Assembly (NCBI GenBank): GCA_032249135.1
Contig: JAVVGL010000002.1
Coordinates: 64,001 to 128,000 of the forward strand
From: Candidatus Calescibacterium sp.
Lineage (GTDB): Bacteria > Calescibacteriota > Calescibacteriia > Calescibacteriales > Calescibacteriaceae
DNA: 64,000 nt
Direction of reading: 5' to 3'
A program made the position numbers. Below, in pieces: positions 42,001 through 48,000 of the stretch. The first letter of the stretch is position 1. Every line of letters starts with the position of its first letter.

Positions 42001-45000
42001 AATGTACTCAAAATTTGCGGAAAAAATGGGATGGAAAACAAAACTAATATACGAGAGAAGATCAGACCTCGGAGGAATAAAAGAGATCTCGTTTATAATT
42101 GAGGGAAAAGGTGCGTACGATTTTATGATAAATGAAGCAGGTGTTCACAGAGTTCAAAGAGTTCCAATTACAGAGGCCTCAGGTAGAATTCATACATCAA
42201 CTGCTGCTGTTGCAGTCCTTGAAGAACCAGAAGATATTGAGATAAAGATAGACCCAAAAGATTTAGAAATTGAAACTTTTAGAGCATCTGGACCAGGAGG
42301 TCAGCATGTGAACAAAACAGATTCAGCCGTGAGAATAAGACATATTCCAACTGGAATAGTTGTTGTGTGTCAAGATGAAAGATCTCAACATATGAACAAA
42401 GAAAAAGCTTTGCGACTTCTTAAAGCAAAATTGTTTCATATAGAGAAAGAAAAGTTAGAGAAAGAAATTTCTGAGAAGAAAAAACAACAGATAGGTTCAG
42501 CGGAAAGGTCGGAAAAACTCAGAACCTATAATTTCATGCAAAACAGAGTAACAGACCACAGACTTGGTGTGACTTTATATCGCCTTGAAGATATATTAGA
42601 CGGAGATTTAGATTTGCTGTATAAAGCCTATCAGGAAGACAACAAAAAATCAAAAGGAGCAGAAAAAGATTGACTGGTCAGAAAGATTGTCAGAAAGATT
42701 GATTATTTTTTTATTATTCCACAACTATTTTTACAAATCTTGTTTTTCCCACCCTGACTTTATATTCTCCTTTTTTCAGTTCAAAGAATTTTTCCTTTAT
42801 CCTTTCTCCATTGATATATATTCCTCCCGATTCTGTAAGTCTCATAGCCTCAGATACACTGCTTACTATTCCAGATTCTTTCAAAACCTTCTGCAATATA
42901 CTTCCTTCTTTTACGCGTATTTGGGGAATTTCGTCGGGCATTTCTCTTTCTCTTATGACTTTGTCAAACCAGTCTTTTGCCCTCATAGCTTCCTTTTCTC
43001 CTTTGAGTCTTGCCGTTATCTTATAAGCTATTTGAGTTTTTGCTTCAAATCTCGGGATTTTTTTGAGTTCTTCTAATTCTTTTTGTTCATATCCTCCCAA
43101 AAGCTCAGCATATTTGAAAATCAGCATATCGTCTATACCCATAAGTTTTCCGAATATATCTTCCGCCGGTTCATCTGGTGTTATGTAGTTTCCATAAGAT
43201 TTTGACATTTTGAGTTTCCCGTCCGTACCTTCTAAAATTGGAGTTGTTATGCAAACCTCCGGAGGTAGTCCGTACTCTTTCATTATCTGGCGCGCAAATA
43301 TAAGATTGAAAAGTTGATCGCTCCCTCCAAGCTCTATATCTGCCTTTACTACAACAGAATCATAAGCTTGCAAGAACGGATATAAAAATTCATGAACAAA
43401 TATTGGTGCTTTCTCTTGCATTCTTTTTTTGAAATCTTCTCTTGCTATGATTTGGGCAACTGTTGCTTTTGAAAATAGCTCAAAAAGTTCAGTTGTGCTC
43501 ATAGATTTAAACCAATCCGAGTTAAAATAAACTCTTGTCCTTTCTTCAATAAGAAACCTCATAACTTTTTTAAGAATTTCCTTTGCGTTTTCTTTTACCT
43601 CTTCCTCAGAGAGTTTTGGTCTCAAAGTCGTTCTGCCGGATGGATCTCCTATTTGTGCTGTAAAATCTCCTATTATGAGACAAACTTCATGTCCCATCTC
43701 CTGAAACTCTCTAAGTTTGAAGATTAAAACAAGATGCCCAAGATGTATAAGTGATGCGGTTGGATCTATTCCAAGTTTTACTCTCAAAGTTCTTCCACTT
43801 TTTAAAAGTTTTTCAAGTTCCTCTTCCTCCACTATTGATATGAGTCCTCTTTTTATCTTTTCCAAACCGTTTTTTTTCTTTTGATTTTTTTCTTCTTCAT
43901 GCATCATTTCTATACCATGATTTTTTCTTTCATGTTTTTGCTCCACAACCATTTTTTTATTTTAAATTTATCTTTTCTCAAACTCTTAATTTTCATTTTT
44001 GCTTTCCTTAATTTAAAGGGAAAGATGAAAGATTTCATTTATAATTTTCTTTTTTTGAGATATAGGAGTTTTTTTCCCAGATTTTTACTAATTTTTTTTC
44101 TCAGATTTTCGCTCTTATTTTCACTATTTTTACTTTTTCATCCGTTCTTTTTTTTCTTTCCTGTGCTTCAAAAGGAATAAAAGGTTTGAAAGTTCCCGAA
44201 CTGGAAATAAAAGAGATAAAATTTGATGAGAATGGAAACCTTATTTTTTCCGTATCCGGTGTAAAGGAAATATTAATATGCTCTGATTTTGAGGAGAAAA
44301 ATTGTGAATCTAAATGTGAATCTGAAAGCGAATGCAAATCTATAAAAGTTAATTCTTTGTTTTCTTCATCTTCTTTTGAAATTTCAAAACCCAAAAATTA
44401 TTCACAAATTAGAGTTTTATTAGTGGGATTTGGAGGGAAGAAGAAAGAGTTCATTTTAAATTTTGTTGAAAGAAAAGTAGTTGATAAGAAAAAAAATAAA
44501 AGATAGATTCATATTACTCCAAGTTCTTTTCCGACTTTGTAAATTTTTTCAAGGGCAAAATCTATATGTTCCTGTGTATGAGTTAGCATTATAGAAGTTC
44601 GCAGTAGAGATTCCCCTTGCGGAACAGCCGGTGGAATTACACAGTTTGTATAGACTCCTTCATCAAATAGCCTTTTCCAAAACATTATAGCTAAAACTTC
44701 TTCACCGAGTATTATTGGGACTATTGGGGTTTGAGAATTTCCTATGTTGAACCCTGCTCTTTTCAGCTCATTTCTATAATATTCTCCTTTTTTCCTCAGT
44801 TCCTCAACCATATCAGGATTTTCTTTCATAAGCTTCAAAGATGCTCTTACTGATGCGACACAGGGTGGAGGCAAAGCTGCGGAGAAAATCATAGGTCTTC
44901 CAAAATGCTGAATGAAATCAATAACATATTTTTCTCCTGCTACAAAGCCTCCAATTGAAGCGAATGACTTTGAAAACGTCCCCATGATTATATCAACCTC

Positions 45001-48000
45001 GCCGTCAAACCCTAAATGATTTGCTGTTCCCCTTCCTCCATAACCTAAAACTCCGAGCCCGTGAGCATCATCTACAAAAATTCTTGCTTTGTATTTTTTA
45101 GCTAACCTCACTATTCCTTCAAGGTCTGCTATATCTCCATCCATAGAATATACCCCATCTACAACAATCAATTTTCCTGAATCTTCTGGTAAAGATCTCA
45201 GAACTTCTTCTAACGACTCCATATTGTTATGTCTGAAATTTACTTTTTTCCCTACACCAAGCTGTGTTCCATCTACGATTGAAGCGTGACATTTTGAATC
45301 ACAAATTATAAAGTCATTTGGACCCGATAGTGCGGATAAAATTCCAAGATTTGTCTGGTATCCGGTTGAAAAGACAAGAGCTTTTTCTTTACCTACAAAG
45401 TCTGCAAGCTCTTCTTCCAATTCTTTGTGCATTTTGAGTGTTCCATTAAGAAATCTTGATCCGGTTGCACTTGTTCCATATTCTTTTACAACTTTTATTA
45501 CCTCCTCTTTGACTTTGGGATGGTGAGTGAGACCAAGATAGTTATTTGAGCCGAGCATTATTTTTTTCTGACCATTAATGTAAGCTACAGGACCCTCATT
45601 TTTTTCAAACTCCAAAAAATATGGGTAAAGTCCGAGCTCCCTCGCTTTTTCAGCAATTTTGAACCTTCTACATTTTTCAAATATATCGCTTGATTTTATT
45701 TTGAAAACTCCAAACCTTCCCTTTATTTCCGCTGAAAGGCTTGAAATTGTATCAAGAGAATATTCATTTGAATAAGTTAAATCTGCCTCATTATTGATCA
45801 TAAGATCTTACTATAATTTCAAATTCTAATTTTTCCCAATTTTTAACCAATTTTCCGGAAATTATGAATTTTGCGTTTTTTGAGTTCCCATGTTGTCATT
45901 ATTTTTTTTATTTTCCAGATCTTTTTTCTCCTGCGATTCCAAATTCAGGACTTCTTTCTTTTTTGATACAACAACCTGAACAGGTCTTATTACCCTGCCT
46001 TGAAATTCATATCCTTTTCTCAGAACTTTAAGAATTATTCCCTCTTGATGTTCATCAGAAAACTCAAAATCCACTATTTCACATGTAGCAGGTGAGAAAT
46101 TTTGACCAACTTCAACTTCTATTTCTTTCAATCCTGAATCTGAAAGCGATTTCATTATGATTTGCCGAACAAGTTCCACTCCCTTTCTTGATTCTTCATC
46201 CTTTATATAACTCAGAGCAAAATCTAAACTATCTAATGCAGATATTATATTTATAAAGACTTTGGTCAGAGCATCTTTTACGGCATTCTCTATTTCAACT
46301 TTAACTCTCCTCCTATAATTTTCATATTCCGAAAATGTATATATCCACCTTGTTTTATAGTCTTCAACTTCTGCTTTTAATCTTTCTATTTCGGCTCTGA
46401 GATTCTCAATCTGAGTTTGAAAATCCAAACTCTCTCCTCCCTCACCGTGTTGTATTTCACCTGATACATTTTCAAGTTCCGAAGACTTCACTTCATATTC
46501 TGCAACATCATTGCCTTTCTCGGTTTCTTGATAAAGTTCATCAGATTTCAAATCTGAGCTTCCTTTTTCTGCACCCAAATCTTCCTCTTTTTTTTCTATT
46601 ATTACCTCTTTCTTTTCTTTATTTTCTTTCATCATAACACCAGATAGAAATAGTAAAATAACTTCAAGTCAATAAGAATAAATTTTTTAAGTTTTGAGGT
46701 ATAAAAATTATCTTTCAAAAAAATCATGCCGAAACAAACAGTCTACAATTTTAAATTCACTATTTTGGTCAAGTTCAAAAAATCCATTTCTTTCCTTAGC
46801 CTCATTTATAAAAACAACATCTCCAGAGTGTACAGATTCTACATCGGAATTCTTTTCACCTATGTTTCTTTCAAGAATTTGAAAAAGATTTTTTCCTGAG
46901 CTACTACATGTCCAAAATCTTATTCTACCTTTTTCTTCAAGCTTATGGCTTACAACACGATGCAGATTTTTCCACCTTGAAAAATCTTTATTTTTTGAAA
47001 GCACAAGGTAAGAAAAATTAATTTCTGGAACCCTCCCCCCTATAAGGTTCATTCCTCTTGAAAGAGAAAGAGGAGGAACCCATTTTGTTCCAAAATGACA
47101 CCAATCATCTTTTATTTTTAAAACAGGACACGCCTCATAGTGCGTGCAAGGTGCTATCACATAATTTTTCAAGGTTTCTCTTATTTTCATAATAAAAAGC
47201 GAATTTCTTCTCTTTAAGGCTGGCTCAACTAGTGCAAAAATCCCCCAATCAGAAATTGCTTTCAAAATTTTATCAGACCATGAAATCATACTATCTGTGT
47301 CATCACGGAATATATCGTAAAGAGAGAAAGCAAGAACAACAATATCAGGATTCTCTCCTATCTCTTTTTTTATATTTATTCTACTCGCATCTGAAACTAT
47401 CTTTTCAATCTGAACTTCAAAAGGTACCCCCTTTGCTACTTGATTCAGTATTTTGATTCCAAAATCAAGAGCTATATCTGATATATCTTGCACAAATACT
47501 TTTACTTTCAAATCCGCCATAGTTTGATCTTTTTGAGATATAAAATCAAGAACGAAAATAAAAGCAGAAGAAGCCGAGCATACACCAGCAGATAAATCAA
47601 CAAAAATCACATCTTTTTTCTCACTCTTTTTTCTTCTCAGTATCTCTAACAATATTCCCTCAATACTTGAAAGAACGAAAAATACAGACGAAAAAGTTTT
47701 TGGGAAAAAGTAATATGTGTAAGGAATAACGGTTTGAAGGTTTATGGGAAAGTTTTCTCCTCTGTGGAATATTTCTGCAAGTTCAAAAGATGCTCTTGCT
47801 AATGATGGTAGAAGATCTCGCCTCCAACCTCCGACTATTCCATCTATTATTTTTGATATTTGTTCTGGGAAGTAAAATATTCTTTTTTTTATTTTTGGTT
47901 TTTGGAGCGGGCAACGGGATTCGAACCCGCGACACTCGGCTCGGGAAGCCGATGCTCTACCCCTGAGCTATGCCCGCCCCACTCTTTTATTCCTCAACTG

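Follow-up and report, generated by a model that had tools for sequence, protein, structure and literature searches.

The bacterial route to ceramides, which runs through Spt, bCerS and CerR, has been described in Caulobacter crescentus (CC_1162, CC_1154 and CC_1164) and in E. coli BL21 (ECD_02854, yghO and ECD_02852). E. coli yghO and the N. eutropha gene Neut_1100 are listed orthologs of CC_1154. Spt-like genes were reported earlier from 40 phyla (PMC11334938), and sphingolipid producers are also known among thermophiles, Thermonema and others being cited in PMC5572230. In the genome of Candidatus Calescibacterium analysed here (G000, 87% complete), an uncultured bacterium of hot springs, all three enzymes are found with whole-length homology to those of Caulobacter and E. 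coli. As judged from sequence, the phylum, of which 7 genomes were compared, encodes a Spt-bCerS-CerR ceramide core, and Calescibacterium, like the phylum as a whole, probably produces dihydroceramides along this known bacterial route, from scattered genes. The genome-wide survey's note had predicted (phospho)sphingolipids in the phylum. The core of that prediction stands, being encoded in 7/7 genomes, and the phospho-decoration is less sure; the rarity that it implied does not hold, bCerS and SPT being widespread. The pathway is thus a known one, and what is new is this phylum as a carrier, with a testable link to orphan lipids. No paper linking the phylum to sphingolipids was found in the literature searched, although the supplement of a Black Sea survey may list it.

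The first step would be catalysed by a serine palmitoyltransferase (SPT) of 430 residues. Its gene, spt, lies on the minus strand at 44509..45801 of the window, that is, of the whole 64,000-nucleotide stretch analysed (C2:64001-128000; gene at G000:C2:108509-109801). As the survey had claimed (E 4e-118), the best PDB matches are SPTs, namely those of Sphingobacterium multivorum (8guh/3a2b; E 4.4e-118, 398 bits), and orthologs occur in 7/7 phylum genomes with 79.5-90.6% identity. The next structures, of the BioF/Kbl and ThAOS types, reach 320 bits, and cysteate acyltransferases 248-252 bits. SerpalmtaseCFB is the top-ranked NCBIfam model. The protein is below all three NCBIfam SPT equivalog cut-offs (501/640, 419/500 and 339/670), but these models are lineage-specific, so that the shortfall rules out those equivalogs and not SPT activity. 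According to the PDB match and alignment, the active-site set is intact (N86, S115, H172, D244, H247, K278, A308, R401), the alpha-oxoamine synthase set (Asn, His, Asp, His, Lys, Arg) being taken from PMC9304779. Lys278, the PLP-binding lysine (codon 44968..44970, minus strand), aligns with Lys244 of the S. multivorum enzyme. An N-terminal extension (residues 1-39; 45685..45801, minus strand) precedes the SPT core, the PDB match starting at residue 40; its last part is conserved across 5 aligned proteins of the phylum, and SPTs of Dehalococcoidia and Polyangiaceae have longer ones.

Upstream of spt, at 60 bp and on the same strand, lies grpE (45862..46635). It is given as context only: heat-shock co-regulation was considered and rejected, the grpE neighbour being absent from the spt loci of the 6 other phylum genomes. 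Elsewhere in the window, fabF (52468..53709, minus strand) belongs to fatty acid synthesis and would concern acyl chain supply with no specific link to spt, and a PgsA-like CDP-alcohol phosphatidyltransferase (22739..23293, plus strand), one of 4 in the genome, provides context for head-group transfer. There is no sign of contamination or recent transfer, since the pathway genes have a GC3 (0.27-0.29) in line with that of the genome (0.26 +/- 0.03), and SPT is found in all 7 genomes. RNA-library contigs span spt in 4/4 runs, in one of them partly; such contigs cannot show transcription.

The two other core genes lie on other contigs. The bCerS gene (C14:27037-28146) is homologous over its whole length to YghO of E. 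coli BL21 (35.6% over 376 columns, E 2e-79) and shows 37% identity to the N. eutropha gene. It is present as a single copy in 7/7 genomes, as the survey's note had stated for its distribution. Because bCerS finds no sequence match in Pfam, NCBIfam or the PDB, its identity rests on pairwise orthology and context. As to context, the gene order around the listed orthologs recurs in L074, a bCerS locus outside the phylum. From 80 bCerS loci fetched, the 3 belonging to the phylum were left out. In the remaining 77, neighbours have as their best G000 match the CerR-like gene at 28 loci, the Tam41-like one at 25 and SPT at 22; the earlier count was 27 CerR-like and 18 SPT of 80.

The CerR-like reductase (C20:12218-13216), a short-chain dehydrogenase/reductase (SDR) found in 7/7 genomes as previously claimed, had been named as the weak point of the proposal; it held under three tests. 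A profile built from 28 operon SDRs gives it 252 bits, vs 129 for the next paralog. In a tree, it and all 30 operon SDRs form a group from which 10 paralogs are separate (support 94); this was a quick tree, with supports of 84-94 and an outgroup that is not clean, and places the CerR-like protein as sister to the operon reductases rather than nested in them. Finally, the gene stands 4.1-4.8 kb from spt in three of the seven genomes (G001, G003 and G004), on opposite strands, with genes between and no operon; by comparison, G000 retains 0/120 other gene pairs spaced 3-6 kb apart. The earlier description of the genes as all unlinked is therefore right for G000 and not for these three genomes. 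The proximity may be a single ancestral remnant shared with gatC. The CerR-like protein is also the best G000 match for 28/30 SDRs adjoining bCerS, and shares 34-36% identity with the SDR that cerR-spt-bcerS operons of genomes G019 and G039 encode. Its best NCBIfam model is HpnA, at a score far under the cut-off. By its grouping with operon reductases and its place near spt in 3/7 genomes, the CerR-like assignment is stronger than first stated.

Could the gene in the window be something other than an SPT? Databases call its close relatives 8-amino-7-oxononanoate synthase, ThAOS-type structures come as high as 320 bits, and beyond this gene and BioF the genome offers no family member to serve as Kbl; all this would fit a housekeeping alpha-oxoamine synthase (BioF, or Kbl/ThAOS-like) unconnected to lipids. 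That reading is nevertheless very unlikely, as a separate BioF gene adjoins bioA, the BioF model ranks fourth among NCBIfam models, and SPT co-occurs with the single-copy bCerS throughout the phylum. The scores argue against it too, and so does the tree (74 of 114 rows used, with six phylum SPTs and no Bacteroidota reference strain included): the six fall within a 33-row clade (SH-aLRT 99), alongside the enzymatically tested SPT of E. coli BL21, and this clade takes in 26/28 bCerS-linked rows vs 1/37 unlinked rows. SulA resembles Spt in fold and in almost all of the active site, which might suggest capnine-type sulfonolipids made from cysteate; but the diagnostic position, Ala in Spt and Lys in SulA, lies at PLP-Lys+30 and is by alignment Ala308 here (codon 44878..44880, minus strand), and with the gap in bits to the cysteate acyltransferases this leaves the sulfonolipid reading hardly any credit. 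The BioF, Kbl and SulA identities were rejected on scores, residues, tree and the separate bioF. A third departure would keep the SPT-bCerS pair and change its product, to a 1-deoxy or other-amino-acid sphingoid, or to an unreduced 3-oxo-ceramide if the SDR did another job. Amino-acid choice is not reliably readable from sequence, the SDR is only 24-36% identical to operon reductases, a WOR-3 genome has bCerS and SPT with no CerR-like match, and there are 1-deoxy, sulfono and other ceramides whose bacterial makers are unknown (PMC11334938). Such a product is nonetheless improbable: the residues round the serine site agree with S. multivorum SPT, and the CerR-like SDR accompanies the pair in every genome and clusters with its operon counterparts. 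In addition, ceramides reported from the habitat bear head groups, and a 1-deoxy lipid cannot carry one.

Dihydroceramide formation thus remains the preferred reading, and further genes bear on its decoration. The Tam41-like gene that the survey's note read as a cytidylyltransferase (C7:48214-49236; PF09139, 39 bits vs a cut-off of 24) is present in 7/7 genomes, a flagged stop in G001 being the gene's own end; its fold model (pLDDT 86) has Tam41 as first match (E 3e-9, TM about 0.5). It is not novel, as it belongs to the described family of Caulobacter CpgC (CC_1161), whose Tam41 domain is already in print. Besides its Tam41/Mmp37 domain it shows homology to the gene beside cpgB in bcerS loci, and in 27/28 outside loci the CpgC-like gene is fused to (10) or adjoins (17) a kinase. 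With CdsA present in the genome, the CpgC-like gene is not needed as a CDP-DAG synthase, and its role as a CdsA replacement was discarded. A single-protein query, with no positive control, found it in 0/5 other bCerS-bearing hot-habitat genomes. As to the divergent lipid kinases of the earlier account, G000 has four kinases of the DAGK family (3-5 matches per genome across the 7), but their tie to CpgB is weak: the best (C19:10911-11909) scores 53 bits against CpgB-type proteins at 20-25% identity, and the three others 29-32 bits. The fatty acid hydroxylase gene also proposed there (C8:61915-62598, by a PF04116 domain match) is present in G000, and the domain with its di-iron His motif occurs in 6/7 genomes. 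Genes for MIPS (C37:10136-11323; G000 and 5/5 further genomes searched) and a PIP-synthase-like enzyme (C1:190256-191035) are present. The search for a ceramide glucosyltransferase gave a PF13506 (glycosyltransferase-21) match, rejected as too marginal at 26 bits, and 13 unassigned GT4 matches.

The sphingolipids had been placed alongside LPS in a hyperthermophile. Lipid A genes are present, but LptF/G were not detected in 6/7 genomes, so that surface LPS is not established; two weak LptF/G candidates belong to other families, and the LptD family search was insensitive (2/14 controls recovered). The label of hyperthermophile, which stands for a growth optimum of 80 C or more, is inferred from two proxies, the habitat (about 80-84 C) and a reverse gyrase over cut-off. 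The IVYWREL estimate gives no support for 80 C, its value of about 56 C being set aside as computed on unfiltered ORFs, spurious ones included.

What the earlier account had passed over is that ceramides were already measured in the organism's habitat type. A glycosyl-ceramide is reported from 80-85 C Yellowstone streamers, its source listed as "unknown thermophilic bacteria", and ceramides bearing hexose, PE or PI as head group from this spring habitat type. Calescibacterium makes up 7-11% of reads in 80-85 C streamers (10.8% at Octopus) and is one candidate source of these lipids, not the sole one. Very hot bacteria with these genes are not unique to the phylum: bCerS occurs with SPT in 8/39 other reverse-gyrase-bearing bacterial genomes and, within one Desulfobacterota-labelled class, in 22/22 genomes, where the inspected loci show a cerR-spt-bcerS operon; bCerS occurs in 165/251 WOR-3 genomes. 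Among reverse-gyrase bacteria the pathway is thus no rarity, a point of relevance to the proposal that sphingolipids aid membranes at high temperature. There is about an even chance that the genes work as proposed and that the streamer ceramides are made chiefly by a different member, with Thermoproauctor (WOR-3) foremost and Armatimonadota or Thermoflexus as further candidates, a reading that touches only the ecological link. Thermoproauctor accounts for 22% of Octopus reads, bCerS is carried by Ca. Hydrothermus pacificus and low-GC hot-spring WOR-3 genomes, one of which (G018) also has SPT (553 bits), and the labels of close SPT relatives read Anaerolineae, Thermoflexia and Hydrothermota. 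Against this, none of the hot-spring WOR-3 genomes looked up is labelled Thermoproauctor, and G018 has no CerR-like or CpgC-like match. With the query used, bCerS is absent from Aquificota (0/178), a Caldipriscus genome and 10/10 archaea, which narrows the field. With an abundant candidate named and the dominant Aquificota excluded at gene level, the question of the source becomes testable.

If Calescibacterium follows the proposed route, SPT, assigned to its enzyme family from sequence, would join L-serine and a long-chain acyl thioester into 3-oxo-sphinganine. Acyl-CoA or housekeeping acyl-ACP is the probable donor, as the genome yielded only one ACP and the spt locus holds no AcpR/AasR pair. 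bCerS would attach the N-acyl chain and the CerR-like SDR would reduce the 3-oxo group. Less surely, the PF04116 enzyme may hydroxylate the ceramide and a divergent kinase may phosphorylate it to ceramide-1-phosphate, which the CpgC/Tam41-fold enzyme could activate, most simply to CDP-ceramide. Inositol(-phosphate) would be the likeliest acceptor, given the MIPS and PIP-synthase-like genes; glycosylation by a GT4 enzyme is an alternative decoration. By extension from PMC5572230, the lipids would probably stiffen the envelope at about 80 C through hydrogen bonding, beside lipid A. It is conceivable, though improbable, that the orphan streamer ceramides stem chiefly from Calescibacterium and that it assembles inositol-phosphoceramide through a CDP-ceramide route not yet described, in which a kinase, the Tam41-fold CpgC and a CDP-alcohol transferase act in turn and no AUR1-type synthase takes part; its outer membrane would lack LPS export machinery or have one too diverged to be recognised. 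If true, this would provide a phylum biomarker, make Calescibacterium the hottest sphingolipid producer known and supply the CpgC reaction that is still missing. Heat-stable orthologs would be useful targets, of bCerS for want of a PDB sequence match and of CpgC with its reaction still to be identified.

Compared with the Caulobacter and E. coli pathway, the genes are unlinked in G000, and neither a dedicated AcpR/AasR pair nor LptF2/G2 paralogs turned up; the SPT carries an N-terminal extension and is of the S. multivorum/Chloroflexota/Myxococcota type. The same lipid class is known from thermophiles and hot sediments (G-CER, PE-CER and PI-CER in Yellowstone springs); sphingolipids of sediments were linked to 30-80 C, with Bacteroidetes given as their producers, and the 80-85 C streamer ceramide has a source listed as unknown. 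With Caulobacter CpgB/CpgC (CC_1160/CC_1161) the phylum has in common the CpgC family gene and DAGK-family kinases; here the two are not adjacent, the kinases are only weakly alike, and the inositol genes suggest inositol rather than phosphoglycerate. No PAP2_3 (AUR1/BT_1522-type) PI-ceramide synthase was found in G000, unlike in the inositol sphingolipid cluster BT_1522-1526 of Bacteroides thetaiotaomicron, with which MIPS and a PIP-synthase-like enzyme are common. The S. multivorum SPT (PDB 3A2B, 8GUH), finally, is the best solved match: setting aside 39 extra N-terminal residues, an Ile for Met271 and a score under the Bacteroidota equivalog cut-off, residues 40-427 align with it without gaps and the catalytic set is conserved.

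The 430-aa ORF at window positions 44509-45801 (minus strand) is, on the evidence of its sequence, a serine palmitoyltransferase (SPT) gene, as the genome-wide survey's note had claimed. On the genome, the window spans C2:64001-128000. Its closest genome records are those of Ca. Calescibacterium nevadense (91%) and relatives. In a sequence search of the structure database, the SPT of S. multivorum was the top solved structure, scoring 398 bits (E 4e-118); a BioF/Kbl-type enzyme reached 320 bits and cysteate acyltransferases 248-252 bits. The top NCBIfam model was that of Bacteroidota-type SPT, with a score of 501 bits under a cut-off of 640. 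Residues N86, S115, H172, D244, H247, K278 and R401 match those of the S. multivorum enzyme in the alignment, and Ala308 occupies position Lys+30, where Ala versus Lys distinguishes Spt from SulA (PMC9304779). A BioF function was also considered for this ORF; it was rejected because a second alpha-oxoamine synthase family member in the genome adjoins bioA and is BioF. A quick maximum-likelihood tree was built from 74 of the 114 collected rows, the 40 left out being more distant or near-duplicate. It places six SPTs of the phylum in a 33-row clade (support 99) together with E. coli BL21 Spt, which makes 3-oxo-sphinganine in vitro (PMC9386255). This clade takes in 26 of the 28 bCerS-linked rows versus 1 of the 37 unlinked ones, a contrast that is only indicative, since linked rows were gathered via the bacterial ceramide synthase (bCerS) and neighbours can be hidden on short contigs.

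The other ceramide genes were searched with the proteins of the E. coli BL21 cluster. A single bCerS match was obtained, at C14:27037-28146 (35.6% identity, E 2e-79), and the top match for the ceramide reductase CerR was the short-chain dehydrogenase (SDR) gene C20:12218-13216. In 77 outside loci, 30 SDRs adjoin bCerS; 28 of them have the CerR-like gene as their best match in the genome, and the other two are partial ORFs. When a profile is made from 27 of these SDRs and E. coli CerR, the gene scores 252 bits and the next paralog 129. A tree of 65 rows groups it with all 30 operon reductases, as their sister, leaving 10 paralogs outside (support 94); the nearest operon reductases (34-36%) belong to the cerR-spt-bcerS operons of genomes G019 and G039.

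The phylum comprises seven genomes, 82-87% complete. bCerS and the CerR-like gene each occur in all seven, in keeping with the survey's counts, which are not independent because all seven genomes are kin within one family. Gene order is nearly wholly scrambled even inside the genus (loci L117-L125). Despite such scrambling in the family, spt lies 4.1-4.8 kb from the CerR-like gene in three relatives (G001, G003 and G004), while of 120 gene pairs that lie 3-6 kb apart in six loci of relatives, none is conserved in the genome under study. The spt regions of G001 and G003 have in common only spt, the CerR-like gene and a gatC-like gene. An operon reading of the pair was discarded; its proximity may be one ancestral remnant.

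Some further features of the genome may be recorded here. Lipid A-related genes are lpxA, lpxC, lpxD, lpxB, lpxK, waaA, kdsB and msbA, and an LptB-like ATPase is encoded at C35:6666-7376. LptF/LptG were not found in this genome, with only a contig-end fragment in one of the seven phylum genomes, and BLAST gave no match for LptA, LptC, KdsC or KdsD. These gaps would reflect either strongly divergent proteins or another export route. In the window, two tandem short ORFs at 23314-24140 (125 and 148 aa) have almost identical N-termini and presumably resemble retropepsin-like aspartic proteases. The products of 38810-39748 and C20:16908-17882, which we take to be Rpn/PD-(D/E)XK-like proteins, carry C-terminal repeats and amount to at least two copies in the genome.

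The pathway is already known, and its genes are real and occur throughout the phylum of Calescibacterium. Sphingolipids are characteristic of some thermophiles and are found at 30-80 C, ceramides being a minor component in Yellowstone (PMC5572230); Spt-like genes occur in 40 phyla (PMC11334938). Reverse gyrase is present in the genome, and 80 reverse-gyrase loci led to a search of 50 genomes: 40 bacteria, one of them Calescibacterium, and 10 of 39 archaea. bCerS was found in 8 of the 39 other bacteria, four with an adjoining spt and four with a high-scoring SPT elsewhere in the genome. It also occurs in all 22 genomes of the class of G019 and, as bCerS-like genes often in 2-4 copies, in 165 of 251 WOR-3 genomes, among them Ca. 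Hydrothermus pacificus and low-GC members from hot springs. This spread of bCerS and SPT counts against a strong reading of the Calescibacterium finding. The class of G019 has a compact cerR-spt-bcerS operon (L326:648-1568, L327, L318, L328, L329), and some members carry, convergent with it, a gene for a PAP2_3 (AUR1/IPC-synthase-like) protein. Reverse gyrase is present in two members. Operons of the order spt-bcerS-cerR occur in Dehalococcoidia (L034, L038, L040, L045, L049, L064), whose bCerS proteins rank among those most closely related to the one of Calescibacterium.

A glycosyl ceramide occurs in streamers of Octopus Spring and Bison Pool at 80-85 C, its source being given as 'unknown thermophilic bacteria' (PMC4318418). 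For four springs, 1G-, PE- and PI-ceramide are listed, not tied here to any temperature, and amide-linked chains stay below 5% in every sample (PMC7044123). Calescibacterium accounts for 7% (PMC4791363) or 10.8% (PMC11696919) of Octopus reads, and is absent from sulfidic Conch Spring. Thermoproauctor, within the broad WOR-3 lineage, makes up 22% of Octopus reads (PMC11696919). bCerS was not found in any of the 178 Aquificota genomes searched with a query that was positive in the reverse-gyrase genome search, nor in the Caldipriscus genome or in the ten archaea searched. Contigs from hot-spring RNA libraries cover spt in four of four runs, one in part, such contigs being no proof of transcription. 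The Hsp20-like gene region (window 47987-48500) has the top contig depth in all four runs, contigs that cannot rank expression, with A-rich loose contig ends at 48497. A literature search, with supplements of distribution surveys outside its reach, returned no paper linking the phylum to sphingolipids or streamer ceramides. What the analysis adds is a concrete candidate, open to testing, for the producer of a high-temperature lipid of unassigned origin, together with heat-stable orthologs of bCerS and CpgC, two enzymes that are still little understood.

In the proposed pathway, SPT would join serine and an acyl thioester to 3-oxo-sphinganine, which bCerS would N-acylate before reduction by the CerR-like SDR, the order proposed for Caulobacter (PMC11087976). 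The three assignments draw on homology, tree and context, from which we infer the enzyme activities; ceramide synthesis by Calescibacterium is considered likely. The head group could be added through a kinase, activation by a CpgC-like enzyme and then inositol, or one of the genome's 13 GT4 matches could glycosylate the ceramide; any one specific route is distinctly less probable than ceramide synthesis itself. CdsA and FAS II genes were found, and a hydroxylase gene occurs in six of the seven phylum genomes.

The gene C7:48214-49236, present in all seven genomes, passes PF09139, and the first matches of its predicted structure (pLDDT 86) are Tam41 structures (E 3e-9, TM about 0.5). Caulobacter CpgC (CC_1161) carries a Tam41 domain, and the gene order from bCerS to CpgC in locus L074 is that of N. 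eutropha (supplement of PMC11324152). C7:48214-49236 is a member of the CpgC family. CpgC converts ceramide-1-phosphate, by a mechanism described as unidentified (PMC12275187). Among 28 outside loci with a CpgC-like gene, 10 show a kinase fusion and 17 an adjacent kinase, which represent few independent events as the loci are for the most part from Nitrosomonas. The kinases of the genome match those of these loci weakly (best 53 bits). Many genomes of Nitrosomonas encode the CpgB-type kinase fused to the CpgC/Tam41-like protein in a single ORF of ~660 aa (L078, L079, L086, L091, L094, L108, L055, L060, L061, L070). As regards inositol, MIPS is encoded in the genome and in all five further genomes searched, and the genome also encodes a PIP-synthase-like protein. 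An AUR1-like synthase belongs to the B. thetaiotaomicron system (PMC9246714); none of that type was found in the genome.
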